DNA from: an uncultured Elusimicrobia bacterium | Lineage (GTDB): Bacteria > Elusimicrobiota > Elusimicrobia > 2-01-FULL-59-12 | Direction: 5' to 3' | Assembly: GCA_963702895.1 (NCBI GenBank) | Contig: OY969767.1 | Location: forward strand, 736,001-800,000 | DNA: 64,000 nucleotides | Shown: positions 11,194-52,880 of the stretch, piece after piece | Position numbering within the stretch: the first letter of the stretch is position 1 | Layout of the letters: every line of letters begins with the position of its first letter | The notes under the pieces: generated by a model | Seen by the model: only the letters and a program-made list of their open reading frames with translations | What the model was told of the DNA's origin: nothing | Databases searched by the model: none | Program-made: the position numbers and the translations under genes

Positions 11194-11244
11194 AATACCG
11201 GGAATTAATATATCTTGACGATGCACCGGGATTCCCGGTATTAT
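11194..11244 (+). promoter_or_regulatory. Putative promoter TTGACG-N18-TATTAT with a 12-bp inverted repeat
   Basis: AATACCGGGAAT (11194-11205) pairs with ATTCCCGGTATT (11231-11242); -35 at 11215-11220, -10 at 11239-11244; GTG at 11251. Confidence 0.55.
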
Positions 11245-11250
11245 TATGGA

Positions 11251-12213: not shown

Positions 12214-12226
12214 AAAGGAGGGTGCC

Positions 12227-12520: not shown

Positions 12521-12627
12521 GCTGGCGCCCGCGCCACGGGGTTGCCGCCTCTCCGGGAGGCCGCCTTGCTGGGGCACCACCGTTCCGGATGGTCGCCTTA
12601 TCGGCGGGCGCCAGCCCAAAGTAAACA

Positions 12628-12656
12628 TTGCAGGCTCGACGGAGGGCAGGTACAAT
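12628..12656 (+). promoter_or_regulatory. Putative sigma70 promoter TTGCAG-N17-TACAAT
   Basis: Consensus-like hexamers with 17-bp spacing; ATG at 12669. Confidence 0.55.
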
Positions 12657-12668
12657 GTCATTACGGTC

Positions 12669-12875
12669 ATGATTCAAAACGCCCATCTCTGGAATGCTTG
12701 GGAGCGCGCTTGGCTCGCTTCTCAGAAGCCAAACTTCCAGCAATCCCTTCGAATCTTTGAGTCCATGCTCACCCAGGCGCGGCATTTGGGCGCCTTCCCA
12801 CCGAAAAACCCTTTGGAAGGGTTCCCGGAGAAAATCCTGTTTGTCCAGCGCCTCCATGTTCGAAGCGCTGCTTGA
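12669..12875 (+). CDS. Small hypothetical protein (68 aa), partner of the downstream nucleotidyltransferase
   Basis: MIQNAHLW...LGAFPPKNPLEG; lies directly after the promoter and overlaps the next gene in a TA-like arrangement. Confidence 0.65.
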   Translation: MIQNAHLWNAWERAWLASQKPNFQQSLRIFESMLTQARHLGAFPPKNPLEGFPEKILFVQRLHVRSAA

Positions 12876-13413
12876 GCGGCTCGGCAACCTTCTCGACCGG
12901 TATCATATTCCCTACATGATCATCGGGGGTCAGGCTGTTCTCCTTTACGGAGAGCCACGTTTTTCGAAGGATGTGGACCTCACGCTGGGGCTCGAACCCA
13001 CCCAGGTGGGGACCTTGCTGGAAGCCCTCAAATCCGCCCACATTCAACCGCTGGTGGAAGACCCGCAGGGGTTTGTGCAAACCACCTGCGTGCTGCCCTG
13101 TCAGGATCCCGAGACAGGATTTCGTCTCGACTTTGTCTTTTCATTTTCCGATTATGAGCGTCAGGCGCTCCAGCGCGTCCGCCGCACTCTCGTCGGGAAA
13201 ACGCCGGTCGCCTTTGCCTCTGTGGAAGATCTGATCATCCATAAGATGGTGGCCGGCAGGCCTCGCGACCTGGAAGACGTGAAAGGCATTCTCATCAAGA
13301 ATCCAACACTGGACAGCCGCTACCTCCACCGCTGGCTTGAAGACTTTGAAAAAGGCCTGGCCCAACCGATTCTTCATCGCTTCAAGGAAATTCAAGAATC
13401 CCTTCGCTCGTAG
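12856..13413 (+). CDS. Nucleotidyltransferase (DUF6036/AbiEii-like)
   Basis: YMIIGGQAV..YGEPRFSKDVD and EDLIIHK..AGRPRDLED motifs; ATG at 12856. Confidence 0.85.
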   Translation: MFEALLERLGNLLDRYHIPYMIIGGQAVLLYGEPRFSKDVDLTLGLEPTQVGTLLEALKSAHIQPLVEDPQGFVQTTCVLPCQDPETGFRLDFVFSFSDYERQALQRVRRTLVGKTPVAFASVEDLIIHKMVAGRPRDLEDVKGILIKNPTLDSRYLHRWLEDFEKGLAQPILHRFKEIQESLRS

Positions 13414-14021: not shown

Positions 14022-17000
14022 TTGATCTCGCTGCTTTTGGCCCTGTGCATGATCGTCGATCCCGTGTGGGCGACGGGCGTTTCGGACTTCGTCCGCGCGA
14101 GCTTCACGCACGACATCCGCGACATCATGATCCCGGCGAAGCTGGGGATGGTGACCGATAAGTGGATTGCGTCTGTATCGGAGTATCGGAGTAACGGAGT
14201 GCCGGGGTCACGTCAGAGCCGTAACTCCGCTACTCCGAAACACCGTGACTCCGATACTGTTGTTACCCCGATACCCCGATACCCCGATACTCCGGTACAG
14301 CCGTTTGTCGTCCTCATCCAAGACCTCCACGCCAACATCAGCGTCCAGCAAAATATCTCGGGCATCCTCCAGTTCCTCTACCGCCGCACGCGACTCAGCC
14401 ACATCTTCGCCGAAGCGGCCTTCGGCCCCTGCGATGTCTCCATCCTCCGAACCCTCCCCAGTCGGCGCGCGCAGAAGCGCTTTGAGAAAAAGCTACTCGA
14501 CCAGGCGCTCATCGCCGGCGACGAGCTCGCCGCCGCGCACGTGGGCGAGGGTCCCCTCTCACCCGTCAAGCTCATCGGCGTCGATGACCCGCTCCTGTAT
14601 CTGGCGAACGTCCAGGCGTTCCGTGATCTGGTTTCCAACGGCCCGCGGATCGCCGAAGAATGGAAGGCGATCCGGGACATTCTCATGCCCGGCGCGGCGC
14701 CGAGCTTGCGCCGGCACCTCGAGCTCACCGAGAAGATGCTGTCGCTCAAACTCGTCGATTACGAATGGGAACAGTACAAAGAACATAAAGATTGGACTCC
14801 TGGAAGGGCGTCCCGAGTCCCGAGTCCCGAGTCCCGCGTCCCGAGTTCCGCGTCCCGAGTCAAGGGACGGACGCAGAACCTGAACGGCCAGACGCGAAGC
14901 GCAGGACGCAAGACGCAAGACGCAGCACGCAAGACGCAGGACGCGCGACGCGTAACGCAGGACGCGAGACGCGTAACGCAGGACGCGAGACGCGAGACGC
15001 GGGACGCTTTATCTGAAGCGATCGCAGCGGCCGAGCGCTTCTACACCGCCGCCGAAGCCCGTAATGGGGCGATGGTGGACAATTTGCTGGATCAAATGGG
15101 TGTATCGGAGTATCGGAGTACCGGAGTACCGGAGTCACAGCGTGAAGGCGTAACGGAGTACCGGGGTACCGCAGTACCGGGGTCACATCAGAGCCGTAAC
15201 TCCGTTACTCCGATACCCCGTTACCCCGATACAGAAATTGCGCCGGTCGCGCTGGTGACCGGCGGCTTCCACACCGCCTCGATCGCTCACCGGCTCAAGG
15301 AGCAGGGCATCAGCTTCATGGTGGTCACACCCCAGGTCGACCGCCTCGACCACGAAGAGCTCTACGTCCGCAGCATGACCGAGCCGCCGCACGAAACCGT
15401 GCGGGCGGTCGCCACGTCCGGTTATCGACAGCTTACGAACCTCAAAAAGTTCGCTGTGAGCTTCGGCATGGGAGAGAAATTCGGAGAGTGGTTCAACCGG
15501 ATGATCAAGCCACAGTACATCTGGAAACAAATCAAAGCCTGGGCCCAAGATAGTTTTGATGTTCTTGTGCGTGAGGTGGCCGCCAGACTCCTCCGACAGA
15601 TCATGGACCAGCCTCAACGATTGCCTCGCTTCGCGTTGTCTCGGCGTTGGGCCCCGGCGCTGGCCGGCATCGGCACCGTTTTGGTCGCCACGCTCGCCTC
15701 CGTGGCGGATGCCGGCACGCTCCAGGCCGCCTCTTTCGCGCCGAGCCTGACGGCGGCATCCGCCGCTCAGCCGGCCTCTGATTTTCCCTCGTTGGGTGCG
15801 GCCTTCTGGCAGAGCGCCTCTGTCTTTCTATTGGTGTCCATCTTATCCATCCTTCTTGTAGCGTGGACCTGGCGATTCTTCCGCAAATGGCAGAAAGCCG
15901 AAAGTCCGCATATGGACATAGTGCATCGGCTTAGGAACATGATTCCACGGAGGTCAGTAACACCAGGCAGTCGTCCTGGTGTTAATCCGTCAGCGCCTCG
16001 TCGTGCGAAAAGTCTCCAGGCCGGTCAACCGCGGAAACCCTCCCCTCCCGCTGTTCTGCGTCTGCAGCTTGCTACTGATGTGCCAGCGGATCCCGTTGAT
16101 CTGCGTCTGAAGCTTGCTACTGATGTGCCAGCGGATCGAGGTGCAAAAGTACCCTCGGCCGGTCAACCGCGGACACCCTCCTATTCCCGTGTTCTGCGTC
16201 TGCCGTCCGTCCTTGTCATGGCCGCGGGAACGCTCTCCGCGCTGGCCGCCAGCGCCGGCAAAGTTGCAGCTCAGGGCCTCGAGGTCGCCGGCGCCGCGGC
16301 GGGCCAGGCCGCCAAGCTCGTTCAGGTCGTATCGCCGGAGGCCGTGTCGGAATACATCATTCATCCCGGCGACACGCTGAGCGAGATCGCGCCGCAGCTC
16401 GGGACCACGGTCCAAGACCTGGTTGAGCGCAACCATATTGTGGACCCCGACCTCATTTTCGCCAACGCCAAGCTCCTCTATCCAACACCGCATTTTGCGA
16501 CGGATCTTGCCGTGACGGCGTCCCAGCCGGCCGCTCAGGTCGCGGGTCCCGCCGCCCAGGCGGCCGACGCCGCGGCGCAGGCCGTCAACACGATCCCCTC
16601 CGCCGCGCAGGCGTCCAGCTGGTTCGATTCCGTCCAGCAGGTTTTCTCTCAAGGCTCGGCCGTGCTCCAGGCGCATCCCTATCTGATCTTCGGGTTCGTT
16701 GGCACGGCGATCATCGGACTGGTCTTCTACGGGATTTCCCGCTATCGCGCCCAGCGGTCAACCAGCGCCATCATTGAAAAAGCCTGGGTTCAGGCTCTCA
16801 AGAGAACGTACACTTCCGAAGCGCAAGCCAGAGAAGCGATCCAGGCTGTCCAGGCGCTCCTCCCGAAGCCGGGTCCTTATGGAGATTATGCGGAGTATGC
16901 CTCGGATGAACTCCTCACGAGCGTCATGCAGAGGATGGAGACCTCCAAGATTAGCCGAGGTGCGGATGGCCAGAACTGGATCCTTCGCGACGGCACCTCC

Positions 17001-20000: not shown

Positions 20001-23000
20001 TTCGATCAGAACATCGCCGATGCGCTGATCAAGGCCCTGCAATCGCCGAAAGACCAGGCTGATGTTTTGAAGGTGGAATCCCGCCTTGAAAACTCCGAAC
20101 AGAAAGAGGAACCCTCGTCCGCGCCCAAGTCCACTCCCGGCTTCTTCCCAAATCCCTTCGCTTGGCTCTGGTCCAAGATCGGAACCGAGGTGGATGCTTT
20201 CCAGGAACAATCATCGAAACCAAAAGAAAGCGCTGCCGATGCTCAAATCGCTTCCCAACTGGCAGAATTGGAGCGCCAGCTCGGCGAGGAGAAAGACAAG
20301 CACAAGAAAGACCAGCTCACCAAGGAAATTTTCGAGTTGCGCTTCATTCAGTCTCAGCGGGCGCTGGCGGGGAATGTCCGCGCGCTGCCCGATCAGCTCT
20401 CCGCGATACCGACTGAGCAGATCGGGCAAGTCCAAACATGGCTGGTCCTGGCCGGAATGCCCGAGCCGGATGCCGTCGCGCGAGGCTGGAAATACGCGCC
20501 GCAGATGAACGCGTTTCTGCGCGACTTCCAAAAGCAACGGGGCATCACCGGCGAAACCGACGCGAGCGGCCAGCCGCTCCTTCTCGAGAAGACAAAAGAC
20601 GCCCTGATCAAAGCCGTTTGGGCCGGACAGCGCCGCGCCCAGCGTACACAGGCGGACGCGCTGGCCCGTGCAGAAGAGCGCCAGAGACAAGCGCAGCTCC
20701 AAGACGAACACGCCCGGGCTGCTGTCCAAGCAGAGGCCGCCCGGCGCAAGGCCCAAGAAGAAACCACCACTTCTCCTGAGCGCGCGGAGGCCGCTGCTGG
20801 AGCCGTCGAGAATGTTGCCCGCATGAGCACGGATCTTGGCACGGGCGCCGAGGAAAGCCGGCGCGTGGTCGCAGCCCAGCAAAAGATCCCGCCGGGGATG
20901 CTTCCGGCCGTGGAGAAGCTGGTGAACCGCCTGAGCTCCCGGGCCGCCAACCCCCTGCAAGAACGGGCGGTCATTTATGAAGAGATCGTGCAAGTCCTGG
21001 CGCAGGCGTTTAGCCCGGAAGCCCTGAAGTTTGCCCTCCAGGAGCTGATCGCGCGTCATGCCAACGGGTTTTTTGCGGACGTGGCGGGGACACTGGCGGA
21101 ACACTTGGTCGGGCTCCTGGCGCTGGGCTCGTCCGTTTCTCTCGAGATTACGCAGCGCATGCTGAGCCAGACGCCGGACGTCATGGCCATCCCCGACAGG
21201 GGTTTCCGCACGCGCGAGACCCAATTCGCCGACACGAAGCTCCGGCAGTTCCAGGCGAGCGACCGCGGGTTCGACGCGAGCCAGTTGACGATGATCTTGC
21301 CACGCTTCCAGGTCCAGCTGGGCGGTGTGACGAACGCGGGGGACCGTTCTTTCTACGGCAGCCTGGGTGTCATGCTCCCTGTCGACCTGCGCGCGATCGC
21401 CCAGCGCAAGGAGATGGCGCAAGCCTATGCTGAGCTCCTCACCCGCGCGATCGCGGCCAAGAACCAAATGAATTTGGAGTTTATGAAAGGCTGCCTGCAG
21501 CTTCTGGCCTTTGAGGCGGCCATCAAGCAAGCCCAGGCCGCTCAATATGCTCAAGGGATCACCGAGGCCGAGCGTTATGCGCTCGAAGTCCAGGTGGACC
21601 TCCTTTTGGCCAGGCATGCGGAGCTCGCCAGACAACTGAGCGCCGTTTTCAAGGTGCCGCTCGAAGGCAAGGCCATGGGGAGGTTGCTGGGCGAGAAGCG
21701 TCAATCCTATTTTGATCTGCGGGAAAACACCCAGGTACTCGAGCCCGGGACTATCCAGAGTACGCTGGAGGAAGCGACGGAGGATGTGACGGCCTGGCTC
21801 AACCGGGAGTCCATCATCACGCAGGTCACGACCATCCTCCAAGGGCGCCCCGGCGTGAACGTCGAGACGCTGGGCAACAAGCTGCGGGCCGCCCTAAACA
21901 ACGCCGGCCAATCGGCGCTTATGAGCGGCGCGGGGCTCGATGAGGTCGTGCACACGGTCTTACGGGAGGCCCATTTAAATCCGCAGCCGATCGAAGACAA
22001 TAACTGGGAGATCGGTTTCACCCTCGCTCCTGCCCGCGCCGTTCCCAAGGGTTCCGATGGCAATCGCTTGGGCAGAATTCTCCTCGCGATCGGGACGAGG
22101 TCCCGGGGCTCGCTGATGCCGGCGCTCGAATGGAACGGCGGCGTGCGAGGACGCCTGGGCGCCTTCATCCACATCGATCTTATCGATCCTGCGCGCAAGG
22201 GCGAGCTGCCGGCCAAGCTTCGCGCGCTGGAGGCGGCCAAAGCGCGCGAGCGGCAGCTCGATGTCGAGCAGATGCGCCGGGAAGCCGCGTACACCTCTGA
22301 TCTTCTGGCCGGGCCCGCCGCCAGCGGCCAGGCGGCGCCGGAGCTCGTGGGTCGCTACCTCACAGCACGGCTGCAACAGCGGATTTTGGGGCCTGCTTCA
22401 GAGGCGGAACAGTGGCTTGAGACGGCCGTACCGATTCTTGAAGGGACCGCTGCAGATTCCGAATCCAGCCTGCGCGGCATCCTCGCGGCCGCGCGCAGCC
22501 GGGAAAGCGAAGCCGGCGTGTCCGCCGCCCAACTCCAGCTGGGCCTGGTCGAGAAAAAGTCTGGACGCTTCTCCTTGTCGATCGATATCGGGGCCCCCGC
22601 CGGCCCGACGCTCATCGAGCTCGCCTGGGACCGCAGCCGCTTCAAAAATCAGAACCAGATCATCGAGCAATTGCTGAAGATCCAAAACGCCCTCAACCTC
22701 GACCTCGTCGAGTTCCAGACACTGGCCGTCGTGGAAGTGCTCATCGCCGCCCACCAGTCCCCACCGGACTCCCTTGAAGCGAAGGTCGCCTTCAAGCAAG
22801 CGCAGTTCATGCTCCGGCGCCTCCTCGGCCAGGCCGCGCTCAGCCTCACGCTCTCCTCCGACACGCTCGAGGGCCTCACGCGGCTGCGCGAGGAGCTCTA
22901 CGCCCGGCAGAGGGAGCGCCAGGCCAAAGCCACGGAGCTAGAGGCGTTTGTTGCCCAGAAAGTCTATGAAGTGGCTTTACAGAACAAACCGTCCCTTCGA

Positions 23001-26000
23001 ATCACCGTGCCCGCTTCCCCGACCCCGAAGACGGTTGTCGTGGCCATTGCCAAGAATCTGATCAGTGTGCCGGTCTTTCTGGTCAGCTTCTTACGGCATG
23101 GCGTGACGCCGCAAGAGCGCGCCGAGAAACGTGCCATCGATGAGCAACAACGCGCCCTCGAAGAGCAACAACGCGCCCAGGGACAGAAGCCCCAAAGCGC
23201 CCCGAAGAAGCCCATGAGCGAGCGCGAGAAGCGTCTGGATGAACTGGAAAGAAAAGCCCGCGAGGCCGAGGAGCAGGCTCTCGCGGCCCAGATTGCCCTC
23301 GAGCTTGAGCAAGGGGGACCGGGCGTCCAGGTGATCAAAAATAACGCCGGCCAGGTCATGCTCTTCACGGAAGTTCAAGGGGCTAACCCCGCGGGGCCAA
23401 GCCGCCGCTATTTCCTTGTCCGGCCCACGCCCCAGACCATCAAGGACCTCGTGAACTGGCAGCCTGGCCGCAGGGACCAGGAGATCTCGACCCTGACGGG
23501 ATCGTTCCTTGCCCCGATCCTGGTCGCGGCCGACCTCATCAAAGTCGGCGATCTCCATGAATTGGCGGTCACGGAGTACAACAGCGCGAACGGCAAAATC
23601 CTACGCACCTACCACGTCGGCGGAGAAGGCGTCCAGGCGCTGGTGCAGGCGCGGGACACGAACCTCAACCAGGATCTGGTCGGCCAGATCGCGTGGCAGT
23701 TCCTGATATCGGACTTCGTTCTTGGGCTCGGCTTCTCGGGCACGGCGGGCCAGCCCGGCCGCTTGAATCAGGATTGGATGCTTCGCAACATGGGCCGCAA
23801 TTTGAAGGACCTGAGCAGCCCCATGTATGACGTGAGCGCTGTTTTCGGCCATTCTGCTTTCACGGTCCGCGGCGCCTACGCCTACGATTCGCAGAGTTCC
23901 GCGGGCGTGGCCGCCTTGTCGGCGCCACTTGGCGAAAACGCTTCGGCGGGTGTGGGCGGGAAGGTGAACACGACCGGTAAGAGCACCACCATCATCCCTT
24001 TTGGGCAAGTCTCTTACAGCCACCGGAGCGATGCGGAGGGGCTGCTGACCCGCGTCTCCGCCTATTTCTCCCAGGACCAGGACTATATCGACCTGATGCA
24101 GAACCTGAACCGCTCGAGCGCCGTCCAGCTCCGCGTCTTTTATGGAGCGGGCGGACAGCTGGAATTCATGCCTGTCATCAACATCCAGAACGGAAGATGG
24201 GTCTTGGCTGCCAACATAGACCGCCACAACATCGAGCCGTCCTTCACCGCAAGATGGGTGATCAAACATGATCTGGCGGTGCGCATCAACGGCATGTTGC
24301 ACGACGAGCGCAATTACGCGACGTATGTCAATCTGATCAAGACCCTCCCGCGAGGGGGCGAGTACTATGGAGGGGTCCGCGCGACCTCCGAGCAGTCTGT
24401 TCAGATGGACCTTGGCGCGTCGACGAGGCTCAGGAGCCTGACCGTGGAAGGCATGATGCTCTTTGAACTGGAGGACCTCGCAAGAATCTCCTGGGGATTG
24501 CAAGTGGCGCAGCACATCGGACACCAAGGCGGGTCGTCCTGGAGCGCGAGCGTCGGCGGCGACGGGCAAGACAGCTCGCGCTGGGCGTTCATGTTCCAGC
24601 AGACGCTCACGCCTCTGCGTAAACTCTATGGTTTGCCGGGCGCCCCGGCGCCGGGCGTGCCGCCGGGCGAAAAGGACGGGGTCTCGGCGCCATCTGCCGC
24701 CGGCGGTTTCTCGGAGGCCCTGGCCCAAACCTTGGGCGAGAATGCCGCCGCGGAAAAACTCTTTGACCAGATCACCCGCTCCCTCTCGACGGATGCCAAG
24801 GACCTCAAGCAAGCGGCCGAGGCCCTTCGCCGGGAACTGGTCCGCCTGCCGCCCGAGGAACAGGCGCGCCTCGGGCCGCTGGTCCAGGGCCTACTGGACG
24901 TGATCGAAGGGCTGCCGCAAGGGATATCGGTCCTACAGAAAGCAAGCCAGTCCGTCGTGGGGAAAATGGAAGCGCAGCTGGTGCAAATTGACAGGGAGCT
25001 GGAAGCGCTCGCCCCTCGTCATGCCGGCAGCGCCCCAATCCAGTCCACGCGGAAGTCCCTGCGCGAAAAGCTTGACAAGGTGTCGAAAATCCACGCGGAG
25101 GTCCATAAAACTTTTCAGGACTACCTCAAGGCGCTGCAGGACGTGCAAAAGGGCCGGCAGACGCTCCAGGCCCTGGGCATTCAGACGGACCTCTCGGAGC
25201 TGCAGCAGGCCCGCGGAGAGTACCTCAGGAGCATTGAAGCGGTCCACCGGATCTCCCAGGTGCCCCGCAGTGCGCGCTCCTCGCAAGACCGGAACGAATG
25301 GAGGCGCTTTGTCGAGCTGCGGCGCTCGCTGGATCCCATAGTCCAGGATTTCCTTCGCTCGGCGCAAGCCGAGGTTTCGTCCGATGCCCAGCGCGCCTGG
25401 CTGGATTACTTTGTGATTTGGGATTGGATGAATCCGGAAAAGCCGCAAGCCGCCGAAGTGATGAACGTGATGAAGGGCCTCCTGCCGCATCTGGACCGCC
25501 TGGGTCAGTTGGACATGAACAAGAGTGGAGCGCGCGAGCTTCTGGACCAGATCGCGAGCGCCATCCTCATCGGGAAGGTCGACCCCCAGAGCGTCTATGC
25601 GCTCCTCGACCGTGCGGCCGAGATGCTGCCGTCCTTTGCCCGGATGCAAGGCAGCAGTGCCTTTGACCTCAACCGATCGGGCGACCTGCTGGAACTTTTG
25701 CGGTGGGTCCATGGCAACGAGATGGCCGTTGACGCTGTCCAGAAGGACATCCGCCAGGAGAAGCTGCCTGAGTCCCTGGGGACGGTCCGCCAGGGCGCAC
25801 AGGTCCGAGCCGAGATCTTGAAGGATGTCGCCACGCTCTTGCGCCAGATCATCCAAGAGGCCGATCCGGATGGCGAGCAGTTCCGTAGGAGTGATCCACA
25901 ACACCAAGCGCTTTTTGACAACGCCCTCAATGTCCTGGCAGATGCCATCCTGAAGGACGCCTACCTCCGGGGAGCAAGCGTTCCCAAGGCCATGCTCTCC

Positions 26001-38000: not shown

Positions 38001-41000
38001 GCGACATCGATTGATGATTTAGGGACCATGCCGGGGGTGATGGTAGCCAAACGCTGGGCTGGCAATACCAACCTCCTGGTTGATCACGTCAGCGGCCTCC
38101 CCATGAGCATGCTGAATCGCTTCGAAGGGACTGAAGTCGCCAGCCGCTTTGCACGGCGTTTGACTGGCAAGGATCTAAGAACGGTCGTTTCGGAACTGGC
38201 AGGGACTTTGGATCCAGCCAAGCAGCAAATAGCACTGACGCAGATCAAAGGATTAAAAGATGACGCCATTGCGCCGGATGTGTTGACGCGCGCATTGCGC
38301 CTTCTGGATCCGAAGCTGGCTCGCCGCCTCGATGAGTTAACGAAGCCGCCAAGCCGGCAGGAAACAACGAAGGTGAACATTTACGAATCGCGCGACGACA
38401 AGGAAAAATCGCTGCGCTTTGAAGCGTTCCGTGCCAGCGGCCAGTCTCTGTGGAGCGTTTATGAAGGATCATCGGACAGTCCTGGTCACAAGCGGTTGTT
38501 TTTTGACGAGTACGGGGAACCGGTGGCTGACGAAGTGATCAGCACCATCGAACTGGGAAACATTCTTGCCGAACGGCTGGCCCCCTACCCATTCAATATC
38601 TACGACATCGTCTATGAACCCCTGGAGGGCGGAGGAATCAATCCGAACATCGCGATGGTCTACGCCTACGATGTGCGGCCGACGGCGGGGAATCTTCTGC
38701 AGCGTTACCTGCTGGGCCCGGTCAACGGGATTCCCTGGCAGCGCTGGGAATACGGCCGGCTCACGGAGGTGGTGCACAACTTCTGGATTACGGAAACCAA
38801 GTCGGGAGCACCCGGCCCTCAAGGCATTGTGGGACAGATTCTGGCGCCACAAAACAGAGGTCTCTGGGATCGTGTGCGAAGGAGTCCAACGGGTCAGATC
38901 ATAGGGCGAACGTATGACAGTTTCGCTGACTTCGTCCAGAGAAACTTCGATCTCATCAAGAAGGCGCTGCCCAACGAGAATGCTGTGCAAAATCCGCCGA
39001 AGACGCCGTCCGCGCAGGTTCCGCAAACGCCTCCTGCGCCGGCGTCACCCGTTAGAACGCCGGTCCAAGTTGCGCCGCCGCAGGGGACCCCACCGCCAGG
39101 CCGTGGCGGAGAGGCTCAAAATCAGACCGCGACGCCGAACCCGGAGACCACGGGGAGCCGAACTAAAACCGCTGCGCGCATCTTGACCGTTGCGCTGGCG
39201 GTGTTGCTGGGCGGGGCTCAGACGCTCTTAGCCCAAACGGTCGTTCCCGCTGCCACCGGATTACCGGAAAAGCTTTCCATGCCTTCCCATCTGCTGCACA
39301 TGCCCAACGTAGCGTTGGACTCCAACGCCATGTTAACGGCGGCGTGCGCCATCCTGGTAGGAGCCTGGGCGCTCAACCGCATTCGCAGACGTATCGGCCA
39401 GATCCGGGCGATTCCGTCGCGTCCCGACTTGAACGTCGCTCCCGAACGCCTGACGGTGAACGAACTCCTGGCCTCTCCGGACCCGCAGACCTTCCGGGCG
39501 AACCTGTCCCGGGCGTTTCCTGAAGTCAATCGAGGGCTGCAGCAATTGATGGACCAAAACCTGCTCACTCCCGAGAAATTGCGCACCGTGATAGCAGACC
39601 AGGCGAGGACAATGGGGGAAGGAGATCTGCGAGGGCTCCTGAACGAACGGTACCTGGGATTGGAAGTCCTGCAAAAGGTCATCGATGATATCTATAGGCC
39701 GATGATCAACGGTTACTTCAATGAATATGGTTTGACCGAGAACGAAGAGGATTGGGCCCGTCTGGGCATCCTCAAGACCGACCCTGTTGTGCGCAACCGC
39801 CCCCTCGACATCCGCGACGACATCACGCGGAAAATGCTCGACCGGATCCGGGAAGGGCTGCTGGTGGATCCCCGCGACCCGCGCGAGAACCCCGTCGCGG
39901 TTCAAAGAGACGATGGGTATCCGGGTGATGACGGACTCACGGTGCGCGTGCGGCGGTCGGTCCAGGAAGAGGCCTCCGGTTGGGTGGATTACAGCCTGCG
40001 CCGCTTCCACCGCGAGCAGCTGTTCGGCTTTCTAGTCGGCGGCCACCAGCTTCAGCAGGGTTTCCTGGAACATACTCTCTTGGACGCCGATCTATTCGAG
40101 CAGCGCCTGCGCGATGAGGGTCGCGCGGGTCAAGGCCGGACCCCTCCGACGGGCTGGTTGAGCGAGATCCTGACACGGACCCGGGACAAGGCCTGGCGGG
40201 AAATGTTTGTTTTGACCGTGGAGCTGAACGAACAGCTCAGCGCCAGGATCCGCAAAGGATTCGGCATGAACGACCGGACCCTTCAGCGCATCGACGGCCC
40301 CCAGGAGCAAATCTGGCGCCTGCTGCTGGAGGAAGAATATTGGAACTACCTCTTCGACTATGTAGGGTTTAATGATCCGTACGAGGTTTTGGGCGTCACC
40401 AAAGCGCACTTGGAAAGCCTTGTGGTGGATCGCGCGGGCACGACGTTGGGAGATCTCTTGTCTCGCCGCGGGTACAACCGGGAAATTGACCCCGCAAACA
40501 TCCGAGACGGGCAAACCACGTGGACAAACCTGGCACCGTCCGCCGTCCCGTCCGCGGCGCTCCTGCGGCGACTTATGCAGGGCCTCTCGCCATCTCAGCG
40601 CACTGTATTGGTCCAGGAGATCGTGGACACCAAATTTATCCCCTTCTTGATTGCTCATTGGAAGGGAGGGCTCAATGTGAAGGAAGTGCGCGCCATCGCC
40701 GCGGAGATGAATTTGGAGCCGGCCATCATGGCGCAAGTGAACGATATTTTGCGGCGGCATCTGGACACCCTGCGCGGACAGGGAATTGATGTAGACCGCT
40801 ATGGGGATTACCAGATGGTGCCCGAAGACGCCATCCGGACGGCCATGGAAGCCGGCGTGCAGCGTGAAGTGGTGGAACCCGGCGCCGGTCCCCTGGGAGA
40901 TATCAAGCGTCTCCATTCTTCTCTGAGAAGGGGACTGCAGCCTCAGCTCAAGAGCGAAGTCGAGCAGGCTGTCCGAATGAAGCTTCTTCCCCAATTCGAG

Positions 41001-44000
41001 ACCTTCCCTCGGCGTTACTTCAATCCCGTGAGGCTGCCGTTGTTCTGGAAGTCCGGAGTGCGGTGGGCCCTTACGGCCGGGGCCTCGATCTTCTTTTCCT
41101 TGTGGTCGGTGGGACAACCGTTCCTGGGAATCGCCAGCCCTTTTGGGCGCCTGTTCAGCGATGTTCTGGGCGTGGTCGCGGTACGGCACGCCCGCTGGCT
41201 GCTCGTTCCTCTGTTTGATTCTGGCAGCGGTTGGACCATTGGATCACTTCTCATCATTGGCTTGGTGGCGATGCCTCTCGCCTGCGCGGTGTCCTACTTA
41301 TTGTGGAGGCTGGTGTTGCGCTTCGAAGCGCCGATCAACCGGGGAGTCGCCGGTTGGGTGGCGCGGCACGGCCGGGGTCGTCCCGGCCTGATCAATGAAA
41401 TGCTGGAACAGCACATTGACCCGCGGTTCCGCTGGGCCGGTGAGGGTCTCTCAACAGAGGAATGGAACAAACTCTCGCCGGAATCCCAGGAGTGGATCAG
41501 GCAGAGCATCCGAGGCCTGAGGTTCTGGATTGGAAGACTTCTGCCGGCTTTCGCGATCACCATGCTCACGCTGATGAGCATTTACGCGGTACCGGCCGTC
41601 GAAGCGCAGACCGGATTGGGCCCGGTCCTGTTCAACATCTTTGCGATGGGCGGGATGTATGTGCTTTGGGCTTTGTTCACGTATGTGCTGGTGCGCGCTT
41701 TCGGCATGATGGGACAAGCTTTTGTCGCTGCCCGCAGCCACCGCGAGGTGGGCCGGTTCACGGTGCCGACGCGCTGGGAATTGCAGCAATCCTTGAATCT
41801 GTTCCGCAGCCGGGCCGGGATTACGACACCGCAGCCGGCCTCCTTCTGGCGGAACCTGGCGCGTCCGCTGACCCTCGCGGTAATCGTCCTGGGTCTGCTG
41901 GGGATGTTGGCGGCGCTGTTCGGATTCCCGGGGACCGATTGGCTGAACACGGTCCTTTGGCAATGGATTTCCCAGGCCGCGACGTTCCAGGGACAACCGC
42001 TTGCGACAGCGGGATTCGGCCAGCTTCCGGACATCACCGTAACCGTACGCGGGCTGCTGGCTTCCGCCAGCGGGCTGGTGGCGGCCATGGGTGCCGTGTA
42101 TGCGTGGGCGAGACACCGGGAAATGTCCAAACGCTTCGGTTTCTACAACTACCAACTGGCCGGGATGTCGGAAGAGCGCACCCGGGCGCGCTCGATCAAG
42201 CTTTACGCGCGGGTGGTGGACAAGCTCCTCGAGAAATCGCGCATCAGCGCGGAGCAGCACCGGATGCTTCGTCAATACGTTGTCCCGCGGGGTCTGACCG
42301 AAGAAGCGGAGGAAGAATTGAAGTTCTTCATGAACACCTTCTTTACCAAGCGTGATGGCAAAGAAGGTGTTCCCGAAGCCGCACTCCCCTGGGAAGCCGC
42401 GCCGCATCTGGTGGACCAGCTGCAAAGCTACACGGAAATTGTGAGTCCCACGATCGCTGGTCTGACGGCGCTGGTTGGCTACAACGCGGGCGCTCCGCTT
42501 GATCCGCAGAAAAATCCAGCTCCGGGGGCGCGTGCCTATGCGCAGGAAATCCAGAATTTCGCCATCAAGATTTACCCGGCGGACTGGCGCCATTTTGTGG
42601 ACCGAATGCGCCAGATCAAAGGGCGGTGGCTGGAAGACGTGCAAAGGCAGCATGGAGTGGGCAGCCCCGAGGCTTTGGAAGCGGAGCGGAAAATTGACGC
42701 CGACATCGCGGCCCTGGCCAGCCTCGATGAGAACACCGTTTTAATGGTGCTCAATGACCCTGCCCACCTCACCCCCGATGAGGAGAAACTCCAGAGGGCC
42801 TTCGCCCTGGCGGGGTATCCCCATGTGGCGTTGATGCATGCGGGCAACGCGCCTCTGATAGAGGAAATAATTCTCTGGACCACCCCCAAAATGGCGGTGG
42901 TGCGGCGCGCGGTGGAATCGGCGATGCTGACTCGTCAGGTCATGCGGGAATGGGCCGAAGAGGAGCTGGCCGACACGCCGGAAGCCGTGGCTTTGCGCAG
43001 CCGATTTGGCCCCGATTTGGATATCGAAGGCCGTGAAAATCCGGAGCGGGCAGCGCTGCGCAGAAAACTTCGAATTTGGGTGGATGCTATGACCGACCAG
43101 GGACGAAAAGCCAAACTCCTGGATGAATTGAACCGCACGGGATGGATGACGCTCACGTGGCTGACCGATACCGAATTTAATTCCCTTCTGGCGATGCGAG
43201 ATCCCCAAGCGCCTGGACGGCCGCTGTTGAGCAACGATGAAGATCGCTATCTCCGGCTCGATCGAACCATAAACCAAGTTCTGGAAGAGCGCTACCAGAT
43301 GAATTACAACGCCGGCCGCGTCGACCGAGATTGGTTAAGAGAAACCGCGCAACGGCCGGATTACCAAAGGACCGTCCAATACAATGGCTTGTCCGAAGGC
43401 GGCTTGACCCAGAATTACACCTGGGATCAGCTCAATGATTACCATTTTGAGCATCCGGACCGGATTGATGGGTTGACGCTCTTGGAAAGCCTGATGGCGG
43501 CTTACCCAGGAGAATGGGTACGGTTTGTGGATTGGTTGAGGGACCGTTCGCCCAATGCGGATGTGAGAAGAGAGGTCGGTGAAAAACGCGACACGTTGGC
43601 GCATGGAGATCTCGACGGCATTTCCCAGGCGCTTCGCGATCAATTCACGCTCTGGGCAAATGTGCATCCCGGGTTTCATATTTCCACCGATTATATGGGC
43701 AATGATCCCACGGATTGGGCGCGTTTGATGGGGACGGGGATGCTCCGGTTCAATGAAAGCCTGGCTCCGTATAAAGCGTCCTTGTGGACAACGACCGCAC
43801 GCTACCTTACCTCGGCCGTCTTCTACAACGACGCCACGCAGCACCGGGAATTTGACCGTACACTGCTCATCCCCAATGTGATGTCGGAATGGAACAAACC
43901 TCAGTACGGATTCATGTTGATGCCGATGGACGTTGCAGCGCGGGATCTGACGCCCGTCAAAGCCAGTCAGTCTATTGGCGAGAGGACTTGGACGTTCATG

Positions 44001-47000
44001 GTCCAGTTGGGTATGGCCCTGCGCGGGATGGTGCTCTTCTACGGTCGCGGCGGCGGCGGAAAGGTGGACCTTCTGGTGCGTTCCCGCCGGCCGATGCATT
44101 CCACAAGCCGAACACCTGCCTTGCCGGCAGCGTCCTTACCCACCACTACTCCTTCGAGCGCGCCTTCGATCGCAAAGGTCATTGTCGCGCTCGTGCTCGT
44201 CGGCTATACAGTCGCCGTCTTATCTGGATTTGTTGGACCCCCGAACTTCACAGTCACTCTTCTAATACCCATGGTCGCTGTTTCATTGTTTGGCCGGTCT
44301 TCACGATCAGCCGCTATTAGAAAGCAAGATCCTCTGCGAACCCCCGCTTCCCATACCGTCAAATACCTCTGGAATCTGCGCTCCTCCTTCCTGCCGTTCA
44401 GTCTCATTGCCGAAGACGCCTACGCGGCGATGATGCAGATCGTCGAAGGGTCCTGGGTTTTCTATACGCAAGCGATCTCTTTCTTCGGGGACAAGCCGCC
44501 GACCGTCGGAGCGGCCATGAACCCGGAAATGAAATACGTCGCGGACATGGGGGAACTGGTGAACCGCCTGGCGGCCAAACGGATGGCCTACAGCCCCACC
44601 GTGCCGCTCAATGTGAAGCAGGTTCAGCAGTTCACCCCCGGCGCTTTCTACGGGATAAAGCTCGCGGTGCTGGCCTTGAATGTGGCGTTTAATGTCTTGG
44701 CCATCCTTCTGCCGCTCGACCCGGCCCATTCCTTCCCCGTCCCCTGGTTATTCGTGGGCCAGGGAGGCTACTTGTCGCAGGCGATCAATATCGCGACCGT
44801 CCTCCTGTTGAACTTCAAGCTCGGCGCGCCTCTCGGCCTTTTGACCTTCCTGGGAGGCGTGGCCATCAATCCGGGATATTTCTGGATGTTCACTCTGCTG
44901 ATCCCGCTCTATGTGTGGTCCCAAAGCGCTTGGGGTATGACCGGGCTGTTTGATTTCCGGATGACGGCACGGGTGCCCCCGAACGCGCCTATCGGAATCC
45001 GTGATATGTACCGACTGCATCATTTGGGGATCATGCTGGCCGCGCCGCTGCTTCTGCTGATGCACAATTTCGCGGCCTACCATCCGATCGTTTTCTGGGT
45101 GACCGGTCTGCAATACGTGCTGATGCTGGTCGGCTGGATCATCGCGCCGCAGATATTGAACCCGCGAGAAGAGCGCGTGCAGAGCGTCCGGAACCGCCTG
45201 GTGCCCGTCGCGGTGATGACGGTCGTGGGCGTGTACGCGGGTCTCTTGCTGGGGTACAGCGGGGCCCTTTACCTCGCGCTGGGCTGGGCCGCTATGAAGT
45301 TGATCTTCTACAGAGACACTCTCAAGCAGGTCCGGGGCCACACCTCCGACGTGGATTCCCTCGCCATTATTGCTTTGTCGATCGCTTCCTACGGTAATCC
45401 CGTCCTGTTCCTGCTGCCGCTGGCCTGGGTGCTGATGGAGAGAAACCGCCGGCACTGGTTGATCGAACATCCCCGCACCGCCGCACGAATGGTGTGGAAT
45501 TTCATCCTCCGTCGTGGGGCCTGGGATGGGAGAGTCTTCAACGGATATCTCCCCAATTCCCTGCGGATGGCGGGGTGGGGTTTGGCTGACGTCGCGATGT
45601 TTATATTCGGGGGTCAGGAAATCACCCTCGACGGTGTGCGCGCGGTACGCCTGATTTCCTTTGGACCTCAGTGGTTGCAGGATATGACAGTAGTAAGGCC
45701 GATTGATCCGAATCCGGATTACCTGCGCTGGAACTGGAATCCGATGGTGGCGGCCCGCGGCCGGTTCCGCGGCATGGGATTGCTGCTGTTCGCGTCAAGC
45801 TTCCTGGTCTGGTTTGGTGCCAGCATGGAATTGGTCTTGTCGGCATTCTTGGTGTACGCGGCGCTGCGCTTTGGAATGTTTGTTTACCGAATCCGGCTCA
45901 CCCGGGAGCTTCGCGGGATCGTCGATGATTGGTACGCGCAGCGAAGAATTCGGGGCTACGCCACGCTCACCGCACAAGAGATTCACGATGAGATCGCCAG
46001 GGACCCGCGGTTGGGACCGCGCCTGAGGCGCATCGAACCCTTAAGAGGCGCGGCCCGGTCGCGAACGCAGCGGCTGATTGACGACGCCCTGCAGTTCGAC
46101 CGCTCCACCACCTTGTGCGCCATCTTCGACGAACGCTTCGCCTATTCCCTGGAGACCCTGACCCACGAACTGAAGATGGTCCGGGAAAGCTCCACCCTTT
46201 ACAAGATCCTGCCCACGATGTCTGTGGCCAGCCAGCACTACCAAAGCGTCACACCTCCCGCGCCGGTCCCGCCCGCCGTCAATCAAGGCCGACGTCGCTT
46301 CCTCAAACTCACCGGCGCGGCGGCGGCCGCTGTGGCGACCGCGGGAGCCTATAAGGCCCTGAATTCACTTTCTGAATGGGGGGCTGGGAAAGTGAAGGAG
46401 ATAAAACCCGGCGTGGAAAACTGGGCTTTCCCTGGCATGTCCGTTGCGCCGGAGGCATTATTTACGTCGGCGCCAAATGCGGCAAAAAGTGTGGTCATGA
46501 CCGAAGACCGGCAAAGCGGTCCGCAATGGATGGTTGATGGCAGGCGCATTTTGATGCGTCAGGGGGTGGCGTATCAACCGGTGGAACCCGATGAGCGTTA
46601 CTATGAAAACTATGTTTCTCCGAACCGGCTCGATGTGCTCTATGCCAAACTCCTGCCCAAGGAAGAGATCGCGGAGTTGGTGAGGACCAACCCCTACTTC
46701 AACGGGTTCGAGGGGCAGGGACGAAACGATGTGCAGGACCTTGCTCAGATAGGCATCACCGCCATCCGTATTTATCAAATGCCCATCCCCGAAGATGACG
46801 ATATGGCTAAATGGTCCCTGCAGGAACGGTTTGAAGTGCTCCGTTTCAAAGAAATCATGCGCCGGGTGGCGGCCCGCGGGATCCATGTGTATGTGAGCGA
46901 AGATTTGGGCGTCACCCGCCGGTCCCCGAAGGCCGCCGACGAGGCCTGGATCCAGGCGCGCGTGGAAAAGTTGGGGCGGATTTACGGCGACGAACCATGG

Positions 47001-50000
47001 CTGGCAGCCATTTCTCTGAGTAATGAAAACGAGCGTTTCCTGCCGGGCGGGGACGCGCATGAAGTGCGCGTCAATATGGAGCCTGCCGCCTATTACGCGA
47101 TGATGAACCGCGCGGCCGAGAAACTGAAAGCGGTCATAAGTCGAAAAGGTGCCTCCCGCCCAATTTTCCTGGGTCATGGGGATCCCAACCCTGAAGCGGT
47201 GCGCCAATTTTCCAGGTTGAGCGCTTTTGACGGCATTGGGTTTAACCTCTATACCAACCCAGGTGCTGTCCCAGGCCTGCGCGCCCAGGTCCAAAACGCC
47301 ACAGCGGGCCGCCGTGTGCCATTGCATCTCGTGGCGGCAGAATTCGGCCAGCTTGCCCCGACTTTCCGGGGATTGACCAACAGGGAACGGGCGGCGTTCC
47401 GCGCGGAAAGTTTTGAAGCTTGGATCACCGCTCTTGAAAATGACCACTGGGCTTCCCACATGGCTTTTGAGTACACGGATGAACGCGAGAAGGCCTCAGA
47501 CGAGGGGGTTGGAGCGGACAAGTACGGCATTCGCGGCATCGAAGTGATCAATAATGTATTTAAGAAACACGCCGAACCGCCGTTGCCCGCGGCCGCGCCC
47601 GTACCCTCTGCCGCGGCGCCCGTACCCTCCGCCGCCGCGCCGGCGGAGAGGCCGCGTGTGGATCCGGTTTCCGTCCGGAATTCCGGCCGGAATGCTGATG
47701 GAGGGCCATTCTTTGGCCTGTTGGCGCGACTGGCCTCTCCTGCCGGAGCTGTGGTTGGCGCAACGCTCGTCGTTGGCATCATGGCCTGGCTCATTCGAAT
47801 TCGTATTCATCGGCGCACTCAAGGAAACGCGCAAGGGCCCACACTGCGCGATGAGGAACCGCCGCCTGGATCACCACCTCTGCCAGAGGACGTTTCAAGC
47901 GAAGAGCCGACTCCCGCTGGAACTTCCCCTCGCGATCCGAATCCCAGCATGGGTCCAACGGACAATCCGGAGCGCCCGCCAAGAGCTGACGCACAAACGG
48001 TCGAAGGAGACCCCATCGGCAATGATCATGGAACACCCATCATGCGGATTGTGCTCCGGGCTGCTGGACTCTTAAAACAGCTTGATCAGCCTTCCCCGAA
48101 TTTGCCGTTGTTGAGAGATCAATATAGGGAGTTGGAAAGAGACGCACGCGAGGCAGGGGTTGATCGTTCGAATCTCGTTAGCGGAGCCCTGGAGAATCTT
48201 AGAACGAGACTCGGTAGGACCCCCGAATCTTCCCCGCAGCGCGTCGGTGACGAGACCCAAGACCTCGATGAATGGCCAATTAGCAGTCGAAATACCTTCG
48301 CGGCAGCCTTCATCAGCAGTATTGTGGCCTTAACTCCTTTCGCCCTGGCCTATGCCGGTGTCAAAATCGCGGGCTTGCCGGGTGATCCGCTCTACCGGTT
48401 GGCAATTGTTCTTGCGCTTGTGCCCGCCTATGCCGCCCTTCGCGTCTATGGACGAATGGCATGGGCCATCCGCCAAGCCAAACGCCAAGCTATACGCGAA
48501 GTCGAACAAGGCAAGAAAGGCCAATATCCGCTTGACCCCATCCTCGCGGCGGCCGAGAGCTTTGATCCTCGTCAGAACCCGAAGGACTTAAGCGGCGCGA
48601 TGGAAGAATACCGGACCTATATGGCCTTTACGCTCGGCGGCCAGATCCATGCCGACAAGGCGGCGCTCTCCCACATTCCACCGGAGCTCCAGGCCCAGAT
48701 CGTGTCCCACGAGCTTGCTCATGTCCAGCAGGATCGGGCAGGGGTCGTCCGCTTCCGTGAGGTCCGCGCCTTCTGGGCGGAATTGAAGGAATCGCTCCGG
48801 GAAGACTTCGGCTTTGATCTCGACAGACTCCTCACGCGGCGTTTTGGTTTGGGTTCTCTCGTGACTTTGGTCTTGATGGCGCTCGGCGCGCCGCCCGTTT
48901 CAATGGCGGCCATGCCTCCCGCGCATCGTCCACTCGGAACAAATGACATTCATCGTTATTTGTCGTCCTTGGACGTGAGCAACGGAGTCTTTAGTCCCGG
49001 CGACATCTCCACCATTATTCTGTTGGAATCCATGGCCGCGCAGGCAGACCGCTTCAGGGGGGCGCGGGTGTTGGATTTGATGGCGGGGTCCGGCGCGCTC
49101 AGTCTCTATGCGGCGCAGCTCGGCGCCCGAGAAGTTGTCTCGGTCGACATCGACCCACAAGCTCTTGAAGACACGCGCCATAACGCGCGCGCCTTCGGGT
49201 TCGCGGATCGCATTCGAGCGGTCCAGAAAGACGTCATCCATGACCGCTTCGATGATCTCGGGCAATTCGACATCATTCTGTTCTCGCCTCCCCCGTTATA
49301 CATCGAAGGTGTGACAACAAGTTTGGCGGATAGGCTCAAGGAATTGCCCGCGCATGCCGTTGATTCGGACGCCCGCATCCTTGATCGAGTTGTCCAGCAA
49401 GATGGGATTGCCCAGTCGGCGTTGACGCCGGATGGCCACATGATCGCCTTCTTGGCCTACATGACTCCCGTTCTTGAGCGAATCCGCGATGGTGGGTTCG
49501 ATCGGCATCTCCTTAGACCCGTTTCTCTGGATTTTGGAGGCTATGCGGCTTTCGAAATCCGCCGGCAGGGAACCCCAGCGCAACCTTCTCAGAGAGACCC
49601 TTCCAATGGCTCGGTGGACACTTCATTCCCGCAGAGGGTTGATGGTGGGCCGACATCCGACAGTACGCGGAGAACTAATATCAATGCCGCGGTCAAGAAG
49701 CGGTTGGTGGACTACCTGGCGGCGGCGCGGGCGAGGGACAGCTTCGGGGTGCTCAATACTGCCATGGAAATGCCCGTTCTCACCATAGCCGGCAAGGAAC
49801 TCAAGCAGCCGGGGCCGGGCGGCGGCGGGCAGGGCGTGGTCCTCAAGGAACAGCCCCAGGAAGTGGGCAAGCAGGGCGTGGCGACCGCGGTCCTTTCGCA
49901 GCTTCCCAAGGCGTTTGTCGAAGAGCATTACCAGGGCTCGATCGAGAAGTTCCTAGCGGACTACGACCAGGGCCAAAAACTGATGGACATCGAGATCCCG

Positions 50001-52707: not shown

Positions 52708-52831
52708 CCCCGGCATGTTGTCCCCCTTGAGTCCGGGGGACTGTCCCTTCCTTTAAATTTAGAGGAAGGGGACGTTAGCCGGGGATCTTCGGTTGTATGT
52801 ACCTCCCTCGCCCGCGGGACGCGGGAGAGGG
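52708..52831. repeat. Structured intergenic palindromes (REP-like)
   Basis: Outer stem CCCCGGC/GCCGGGG enclosing two hairpins; a separate CCCTCGCCCGCG...CGCGGGAGAGGG hairpin at ~52805-52831. Confidence 0.65.
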
Positions 52832-52880
52832 AACGAAAAATGTGAGGATGACATCTTGTGATGACGTGTCAGGAGATCCA

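Follow-up and report, generated by a model that had tools for sequence, protein, structure and literature searches.

Can one reading frame hold a complete apparatus for making a polysaccharide and moving it through the cell envelope? The question is raised by a giant open reading frame (ORF) at 14022..52685 of a 64,000-nucleotide stretch of DNA, called the window here (contig OY969767.1, positions 736,001 to 800,000), from an uncultured Elusimicrobia bacterium (assembly GCA_963702895.1). An earlier reading of the letters, referred to below as the original prediction, listed LysM, peptidoglycan-binding, TolC-like, beta-barrel and RHS/YD-like parts with an SLT domain, then a multi-transmembrane (TM) GT48-like synthase, a Tat-linked clan GH-A hydrolase and cytoplasmic-type enzymes, and took them together as a trans-envelope beta-glucan synthesis and export machine. 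The parts lie along the chain in the order listed there, and at the Pfam/NCBIfam level four of the eight stand. With modest confidence, we favour the reading that the ORF encodes a fused synthase-dependent polysaccharide unit, set in a giant protein of the inner membrane with a further role in handling peptidoglycan.

The GC content along the ORF was about 0.55-0.64 (overall ~60%), and because of the length of the frame at this composition a chance origin of its 12,887 codons was ruled out. A hydropathy scan revealed ~35 hydrophobic segments distributed over the entire chain. The host genome was a single contig of 2.72 Mb and 98% complete, with further giant frames of 13,707, 8,601, 6,682, 4,698 and 4,068 aa. 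Homologous giant ORFs colinear with this one were found in five genomes (G002, G004, G005, G008 and G010), and those in related genomes had 4,477-8,204 aa. When the chain was scanned with Pfam in 12 overlapping tiles at E<=5, no PG_binding, OEP/TolC, barrel-family, RHS, Glucan_synthase or glycoside hydrolase match was obtained.

The GT48/FKS-like synthase module and its bacterial relatives

The multi-TM GT48-like synthase of the original prediction was recovered by remote homology. Among 1.84 billion representative proteins, 18 relatives of aa 9290-10489 were identified, and four long ones (P0001-P0004; 2,306-7,107 aa) were colinear with aa ~8506-10535. As for the named sources, six relatives were partial proteins of Omnitrophota metagenome-assembled genomes, and one cluster was a Planctomycetota 'glycogen/starch synthase'. 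A bridge to known enzymes was given by the relative P0016 (502 aa), which matched Pfam Glucan_synthase (PF02364) with 71.8 bits against a cut-off of 37.2 bits, and yeast FKS1 with E 3.5e-10. The family profile built from 17 sequences, P0016 excluded, was aligned to P0016 by hhalign over 282 columns with 99.5% probability (E 8.9e-23). PF02364 was matched at E<=1 by 4 of 14 family members, and no other Pfam family by more than one. In addition, a compact profile of 11 sequences (A6), run at E<=10 against the 177,635 distinct sequences of PDB, gave six matches, all of them FKS1 or GSC2 (E 0.004-0.016), which fell in three colinear pieces spanning the DAN, ED and TGR motifs. By this remote and transitive profile comparison the module is judged homologous to GT48, and from family resemblance its product would be a beta-glucan.

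Searches with single sequences gave little: phmmer of aa 8901-10700 found no match in PDB, word-index searches found no homologue of the synthase region among giants of 5,499-17,499 aa, and the P0016 query retrieved itself alone. For the synthase region the ESM Atlas returned Glyco_trans_2_3 at 0.76, a weak lead. The hydropathy layout of the module was TM-GT-TM, and the AlphaFold2 model of aa 9560-10560 (19 sequences) was unusable (pLDDT 44.2, pTM 0.30).

Residues were mapped to FKS1 through P0016 and bona fide bacterial GT48 domains, with the roles of the FKS1 residues as given in the available parts of PMC10499315 and PMC12715860. K9918 corresponded to K1082, D9937 to D1102, E10131-D10132 to E1221-D1222 and K10158 to R1248, while R10317 sat at the position of the TGR arginine. 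For the ED motif, A-E10131-D10132 was aligned to NED or AED in seven of the eight rows, the row of G005 being poorly aligned there. The DAN motif was read as D9937-A-T9939, with the Asp retained and the Asn changed to T, and the diverged subfamily as a whole was without this Asn. An insert of ~100 aa in the GT domain, composed of a Pro/Ser-rich linker and a hydrophobic hairpin, was unique to this protein.

Like Fks1/Gsc2 and the plant callose synthases (GT48, PF02364; PDB 7xe4), the module would consist of TM helices, a cytoplasmic GT-A domain and a TM bundle. The ED pair, the first Asp of DAN, the UDP-binding Lys and the Arg/Lys of K-G-R and T-G-R could be aligned with those of Fks1/Gsc2; unlike these enzymes, the module is bacterial, lies inside a 12,887-aa protein, falls below Pfam detection and reaches only ~20-25% identity through the bridge sequence. 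Regulation of the Rho1 type would not be expected for it.

Closer counterparts existed in the phylum. In a sample of 401 phylum genomes, where PF02364 was counted at E<=0.001, the family was present in 14 genomes, in 7 of them above the cut-off, and it was found in none of the 14 control genomes. Every match in the phylum sample sat in an open frame of 1,183-9,048 aa. A genome of the same family (G006) carried PF02364 in a 6,918-aa ORF with E 1.3e-56, directly followed on the 3' side by a 1,053-aa ORF with a GH-A-like domain. The domain was detected with E 8e-31 in an 8,368-aa ORF of G098 and with E 3e-66 in a 9,030-aa ORF of G096, which also matched FKS1 with E 2.3e-35 and retained all motifs. 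The synthase module of the present ORF was aligned to the G006 copy by hhalign with 76.9% probability (E 2e-5), and it appears to be a strongly diverged cousin of this real bacterial GT48 population.

These bacterial GT48 giants resemble the ORF in their giant size, their multiple TM segments and their N-terminal domain, which shared 50% identity with the N-terminus of the G006 giant and 29-31% with those of G096 and G098. In G006 and G098, as here, GT48 was followed by a GH-A domain or gene. The synthases differ in that G006, G096 and G098 pass Pfam strongly, and G096 keeps the FKS1 motifs, whereas the module of this ORF belongs to a separate, far more diverged subfamily common to Omnitrophota-labelled fragments.

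The giant of G096 (L038, G096:C1) also combined SecA_DEAD and seven GA modules (E 5e-66) with its fully conserved GT48. For biochemistry, it would be a better place to start than the diverged module of the present ORF.

The GH-A glycosidase, wall-handling domains and C-terminal enzymes

The GH-A hydrolase was likewise recovered by remote homology, with an intact NE...E set and relatives bearing Glyco_hydro_2_C. Its close homologues were found in G005 (44.5-46% identity, in a 5,855-aa ORF), G006 (38-41%) and G010. Weak homologues (E 1e-6 to 1e-2) were present in 48 of the 401 phylum genomes, the own genome counted, and all five that were scanned (~660 aa) matched Pfam Glyco_hydro_2_C with E ~1e-11 to 1e-13. 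Four close and seven distant sequences were joined by hhalign with 99.1% probability (E 9.3e-19), and in all 11 aligned sequences N11001-E11002 (acid/base) and E11107 (nucleophile) were invariant, together with an Arg, two Tyr and another Glu typical of clan GH-A. Against PDB the combined 11-sequence profile matched GH158 first (E 1e-11 and 4e-11) and then GH2 (2e-8). These comparisons argue for membership of clan GH-A and for a resemblance to GH158, which in the available part of PMC7157763 is a clan GH-A endo-beta-1,3-glucanase family with catalytic N136, E137 and E220. Compared with the TIM barrels of GH158 (BuGH158, PDB 6pal; 9oro) and GH2, the N-E pair and the second E fell on the expected strands; GH158 differs in having an Ig-like C-terminal domain, which was not seen in the GH domain here. 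By phmmer no match to aa 10701-11333 was obtained in PDB, and a word-index search with the GH domain, limited to proteins of 220-702 aa, gave no homologue.

A fungal Gas-type GH72 enzyme, suggested by the motif 'GVAYQP', was rejected: PF03198 missed the ORF and gave four weak matches elsewhere in the genome.

The order of synthase and glycosidase recurred. GT48 followed by GH-A was fused in one chain in this genome, in G005 and in G098, and lay in adjacent genes in G006. In addition, the RHS/YD-like block was combined with a GT48-like module in this genome, G004 and G005 and with SLT in this genome and G005, and a GT48-like module followed by a GlgA-like one was observed in this genome and in P0008/P0019. 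As to the conservation of domain order, then, the succession of synthase and GH-A held in three other genomes, and the TolC/barrel stretch had no such constancy.

Export of the glycosidase by the Tat pathway had been proposed from a twin-arginine motif, and the motif GRRRFLKLTG was indeed present. The pathway itself was contradicted by the genome, in which TatC (PF00902) was not found, complete as it is to 98% on a single contig; 11 of 14 controls were positive. Because TatC is missing, the segment was read as a signal-anchor of the Sec type, and probably acts as such within the chain.

Two wall-handling domains were confirmed above their Pfam cut-offs. The LysM domain was flanked by an in-to-out and an out-to-in hydrophobic segment, and was present in this ORF alone among the giants compared. 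The SLT domain was also matched by NCBIfam lytic transglycosylase models, its catalytic Glu-Ser motif 'VESSF' was readable in the translation, and it was found in the G005 homologue (E 7.6e-16). The beta-rich stretch on its 3' side was conserved in G005 as far as aa 7190. For the separate peptidoglycan-binding domain that had been listed, none of the 12 tiles gave a Pfam match at E<=5.

The cytoplasmic-type enzymes were identified by Pfam and NCBIfam as methyltransferase and GlgA-type domains. The former matched TIGR03534 with E 1.3e-13, under the equivalog cut-off of this model; the latter matched TIGR02095 with E 2.9e-42 and 144.9 bits, under the equivalog cut-off of 328 bits, so that it is classed from these scores as GlgA-like and not as an equivalog. 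On the 3' side of the GlgA-like domain, the region at window 51700-52240 (aa ~12560-12740) read as a small alpha/beta (TIM-like) fold and matched no family.

Table 1. Features of the giant ORF, with positions in the window and the evidence for each
Feature	Residues (aa)	Window position	Strand	Evidence or remarks
Whole giant ORF	12,887 in all	14022..52685	+	Single frame, TTG start, one terminal stop
N-terminal ~450-aa domain, no family assigned	~30-470	14109..15431	+	Common to N-termini of other giant ORFs
LysM, peptidoglycan-binding	778-819	16353..16478	+	Pfam PF01476, E 1.4e-8, 35 bits (cut-off 20.9)
'TolC-like' stretch	~2395-3010	21204..23051	+	Helix-rich, short strand motifs
'Beta-barrel' stretch	~3190-3560	23589..24701	+	Strand-rich by eye
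Array of ~65-130-aa helical repeats	~4731-5520	28212..30581	+	Self-comparison; also in G010 and G002
'RHS/YD-like' block, beta-rich	~5450-6880	30369..34661	+	~280-aa internal repeats, 'D-x-x-G-R' hairpin-like motifs
SLT lytic transglycosylase	6884-6992	34671..34997	+	Pfam PF01464, E 1.3e-24, 86.4 bits (cut-off 21.3)
Second beta-rich stretch, 3' of SLT	~7000-8380	35019..39161	+	No Pfam/NCBIfam match
GT48/FKS-like membrane glycan synthase module	~8506-10622	39537..45887	+	N-terminal TM helices, GT domain, C-terminal TM bundle
Putative catalytic core with GT48 motifs	9932-10320	43815..44981	+	hhalign, PDB profile search, motif alignment
~100-aa insert in GT domain	~10012-10110	44055..44351	+	Gap in 13 of 13 other rows of alignment A1
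Internal signal-like segment with twin-arginine motif	~10766-10792	46317..46397	+	GRRRFLKLTG at aa ~10765
Clan GH-A (beta/alpha)8 glycosidase, by remote homology	~10800-11190	46419..47591	+	Close homologues, invariant catalytic columns, hhalign
HExxH region (HELAH at 11563)	11535-11574	48624..48743	+	eCIS_core/DUF4157-type PF13699, E 0.01, below cut-off
HemK/PrmC-like SAM-dependent methyltransferase	11648-11805	48963..49436	+	Pfam MTS, E 1.4e-11
GlgA-type GT5 and GT1	11935-12505	49824..51536	+	PF08323, E 7.7e-24, 85.1 bits (cut-off 22.7)
C-terminal hydrophobic-hairpin module with HEKLVH	12741-12869	52242..52628	+	Recurs in downstream ORF

The topology was predicted by a positive-inside heuristic from the Lys/Arg counts around hydrophobic segments. 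By this count the N-terminal and GT domains would lie inside; LysM, the greater part of aa 1493-4611, the SLT block and the GH domain would lie outside. Segments running from inside to outside with the look of signal peptides (basic residues, a hydrophobic core and Ala-x-Ala) were noted at aa ~544, 724, 1474, 4640, 8390, 9173, 10766 and 11613. Each of them may be no more than a signal-anchor, or else may mark a place where the chain is cleaved.

If such sites were cut, the product would be a polyprotein, with the signal-like segments and HExxH motifs marking cleavage into a separate synthase, a glycosidase, an SLT wall protein and cytoplasmic enzymes. The at least eight in-to-out segments resembling signal peptides with A-x-A would fit this, as would the HExxH at aa 11563 with its weak eCIS_core match, the HEKLVH of the recurrent C-terminal module and the fact that the GH-A part is a gene of its own in G006. 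The start- and stop-transfer helices of ordinary polytopic proteins look alike, however, and we regard processing of this kind as quite unlikely.

The TolC-like, barrel-like and RHS/YD-like regions

In its full form, the original prediction added to the same chain a TolC-like duct (aa ~2400-3010) and a barrel (aa ~3190-3560), which would make it a complete secretion machine. By eye, the first stretch has a pattern of helix, 'LP-x-hydrophobic-x-hydrophobic-G' strand and helix. When aa 2380-3010, alone or as a three-genome alignment, was compared by hhalign with a profile of the genome's seven OEP genes, the top match lay on the right elements with E 0.047-0.13, yet it was not significant and its probability was at most 1.1%. 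The OEP model (PF02321) itself detected these seven ordinary TolC-family genes with 14 matches, and neither it nor any barrel family matched the giant ORF at E<=5. In a language-model atlas the nearest cluster to aa 2381-3560 was 'TolC family protein' at 0.79, but this is below the level reached by one-third of shuffled proteins. The AlphaFold2 model of the same region (4 sequences) was unusable (pLDDT 37.3, pTM 0.28).

For the barrel-like stretch, no Pfam/NCBIfam match was obtained at aa ~3190-3560. The alternating residue patterns of its strands were judged by eye to be retained in the three-genome alignment, and a duct and barrel would agree with the heuristic, which places the greater part of aa 1493-4611 beyond the inner membrane; the stretch is nevertheless broken by a highly charged linker and, at aa 3005-3023, by a hydrophobic segment. 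Thus neither the TolC-like part nor the beta-barrel was substantiated.

The distribution of the stretch told in the same direction. In a family-level search it turned up in just two genomes, G002 and G010, where it is conserved and colinear and where both sequences are truncated by the ends of their contigs; 300 sampled phylum genomes gave no match. HMMs of the stretch matched none of the five full-length GT48-bearing giants (G004, G005, G006, G096 and G098), so the stretch is not a conserved partner of the synthase. Failure of these parts to co-occur with the synthase in homologous giants had been named beforehand as refuting, and in none of the five did they co-occur. A full machine with its own duct and barrel is therefore held to be very unlikely.

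The block called RHS/YD-like was the best-conserved block of the gene family, with 27-36% identity to G002, G004, G005, G008 and G010, and was found in six of the 11 family genomes, this genome counted. Its assignment did not hold up in profile searches. The RHS/YD models (PF05593, TIGR01643) gave two matches only on the ORF, with E 4.5 and 8.3, whereas the true RHS gene of the genome was detected with E 2e-10. A six-genome alignment of aa 5447-6880 was compared with this gene by hhalign and reached 0.8%, and the RHS family was rejected for the block on these two results.

Within this conserved beta-rich block an in-frame 42-nt tandem duplication was observed at window 31925-32012 (2.1 copies, 97% matches). 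It was missing from all five aligned homologues.

The TolC, barrel, RHS and Tat parts, which make up half of the machine first proposed, were not borne out by the tests, and this marks a limit of reading domains by eye.

Place among giant proteins, possible function and meaning

The N-terminal ~450-aa domain also headed large ORFs elsewhere in the same genome (paralogues at 2386882-2406927, 1725847-1731762, 797984-802591 and 802661-807850), and giants of this class may have it in common as a 'leader'. In the 5' part of the ORF, tandem repeats of 7, 8 and 21 nt at window 14224-15232 encode Pro/Arg/Ser/Thr/Gln-rich linkers that interrupt the domain. At the other end, the C-terminal ~130-aa module had two further copies (E 4e-24 and 9e-30) in the downstream 3,012-aa ORF (52797-61835), which also held a DnaJ domain. 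Between the ORF and a SecA-like giant upstream, window 7289-13413 contained two AAA_14/DUF4143 ATPase genes, a HATPase_c_2 gene and a DUF6036/AbiEii-type nucleotidyltransferase gene; together they look like an inserted cassette of the defence or toxin-antitoxin type.

The available parts of two bioRxiv preprints, West-Roberts et al. 2023 (10.1101/2023.11.21.568195) and Nielsen & Lui 2026 (10.64898/2026.06.07.730766), describe giant multi-TM proteins that combine several enzymes, with GT5, GT1 and methyltransferase domains and now and then an SLT. In the former, the multi-TM giants adjoin secretion systems. The ORF resembles these Omnitrophota giants and Archaeovorins in exceeding 10,000 aa, in its many TM segments, in the set of GT5 (PF08323), GT1 and methyltransferase and in the occasional SLT; they differ in carrying SecA, dockerin and TSP3 domains, none of which was present here. 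As class 1 of Omnitrophota is described in the available part of Nielsen & Lui, it is marked by at least 10,000 aa, TM helices and tiled PF08323, PF00534 and methyltransferase domains, and all of these were found in the ORF. A divergent SecA DEAD domain is embedded in most but not all giants of the class 1 or Archaeovorin type.

No embedded SecA DEAD domain was found in this ORF by the Pfam scans, and a ResIII/SecA-like domain was located in the separate giant ORF upstream. Elsewhere, in a fragment of G002 and in the giants of G096 and G098, SecA domains lay in the same frame as homologous parts or as GT48. In G002, which is of the same genus, the fragment (L021, G002:C362) had a SecA P-loop and SecA_SW at aa 42-167 (E 1.9e-41), upstream of and in frame with a homologue of aa 2119-3312. 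The split SecA part of this genome and the joined one of G002 suggest gene fission or fusion among the giants.

From this kinship, the ORF could be read as a device, similar to the Archaeovorins, by which a predatory or host-dependent bacterium attacks other cells or attaches to them: SLT and GH would digest the wall of a partner, the beta-rich and repeat regions would adhere to it, and the glycosyltransferases would convert the released sugars rather than make a polymer for the cell itself. The giants of West-Roberts et al. with GT5, GT1 and occasional SLT, for which degradation of the prey wall is proposed in the part available, lend it some weight; in the available part of Nielsen & Lui, too, the set of GT5, GT1 and methyltransferase is the most frequent one, and the genome holds the several further giants of 4,068-13,707 aa. 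On the other hand, a processive synthase that sits in the membrane and has a translocation bundle would make and export a polymer, which is a misfit with sugar salvage; the conserved order of synthase and GH fits known pairs of synthase and trimmer, and the genome has a size of 2.7 Mb. Such a device is considered unlikely, though it overlaps the favoured reading in that the polymer could be a holdfast. The alternatives considered here partly overlap that reading and one another.

We return to the favoured reading, a fused synthase-dependent polysaccharide unit, which starts from what was shown: the ORF itself, the homologies of its domains, the conservation of catalytic residues and the recurring order of synthase and GH-A. 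The giant would be an inner-membrane protein spanning the membrane many times, of the 'multi-enzyme giant protein' class of Omnitrophota and neighbouring phyla. Its diverged GT48 module would be a processive glycosyltransferase that has its catalytic domain on the cytoplasmic side and threads the polymer, possibly a beta-(1,3)-type glucan, through the inner membrane by way of a helix bundle. The exported GH-A glycosidase, next in the chain, would trim or transglycosylate the emerging polymer. LysM and SLT, set in a large conserved beta-rich domain that would face the periplasm, may bind peptidoglycan and open it locally, and the GlgA-like and methyltransferase domains downstream would lie on the cytoplasmic side. 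If the parts act jointly, the polymer may be destined for the periplasm, the wall or the cell surface.

Synthase-dependent systems offer a comparison. The cellulose (BcsA/BcsB/BcsZ/BcsC) and periplasmic glucan (OpgH/OpgG) systems have GT2 synthases and GH8 or OpgG-type partners in separate genes, and the outer-membrane porin of Bcs is a demonstrated TPR-plus-barrel. The unit proposed here would share with them an inner-membrane processive, translocating synthase and a periplasmic glycosidase acting on the product. It differs from them in its fused parts and its GT48-like synthase, and for it no pore was demonstrated; a built-in outer-membrane pore has no part in the favoured explanation. By family the unit resembles fungal Fks together with a glucanase of the wall. 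Of the one-chain machine first proposed, the fusion of a GT48-type synthase, a glycosidase predicted to face the periplasm and modules that bind and cleave peptidoglycan was retained, and the trans-envelope export pore was given up.

Several observations weigh against this reading. PF02364 gave no match to the ORF at E<=10 when the whole genome was searched, and an earlier, looser family profile (A1) had zero matches in PDB. FKS1 N1104, H1195 and K1246 are replaced by T, R (YGR 10007-9) and G/D, and because of these replacements and of the ~100-aa insert that splits the GT domain, the synthase activity is possibly altered or lost. For the supply of UDP-glucose, no galU equivalog was found above the cut-off in the 98%-complete genome. 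The four closest GH sequences alone (profile A4) had no PDB match at E<=1, so the resemblance to GH158 depends on the intermediate ~660-aa sequences, and membership of clan GH-A leaves the substrate unfixed. The topology heuristic is crude and conflicts at aa ~3005-4630, 8390-9076 and 11613; if the segment at aa 11613 spans the membrane, the 'cytoplasmic' methyltransferase and GlgA-like domains would lie outside.

In the available parts of PMC10499315 and PMC12715860, GT48 is treated as a fungal and plant beta-1,3-glucan synthase family and as the echinocandin target, and bacteria figure there as a source of GT2 cellulose synthases only. The main texts of West-Roberts et al. and Nielsen & Lui, searched by term and with their supplements outside this search, contained no glucan synthase, callose or PF02364, and among the titles listed in literature searches there was no published account of bacterial GT48 in such giant proteins. 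By the profile evidence, this ORF carries a diverged version of GT48 fused to a GH-A glycosidase and to modules that handle peptidoglycan.

A bolder proposal can be put forward tentatively, and we hold it to be doubtful as a whole: the fungal and plant route to beta-1,3-glucan, a GT48 synthase with a GH-A glucanase or transglycosylase on the wall side, might have a deep and so far undescribed bacterial branch housed in giant envelope proteins of Elusimicrobiota, Omnitrophota and their relatives, and this ORF would be its most elaborate and most diverged form. One chain would then thread and trim a beta-glucan and knit it into or through peptidoglycan that it opens itself by SLT and grips by LysM, giving a glucan wall layer, a sheath or a holdfast.

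If the module is active, giant proteins that are otherwise unexplained would gain a concrete and testable job, the synthesis of a polysaccharide, and bacteria would offer a setting for work on processive glucan synthesis. It would then also have to be asked where the wall synthase of eukaryotes came from.

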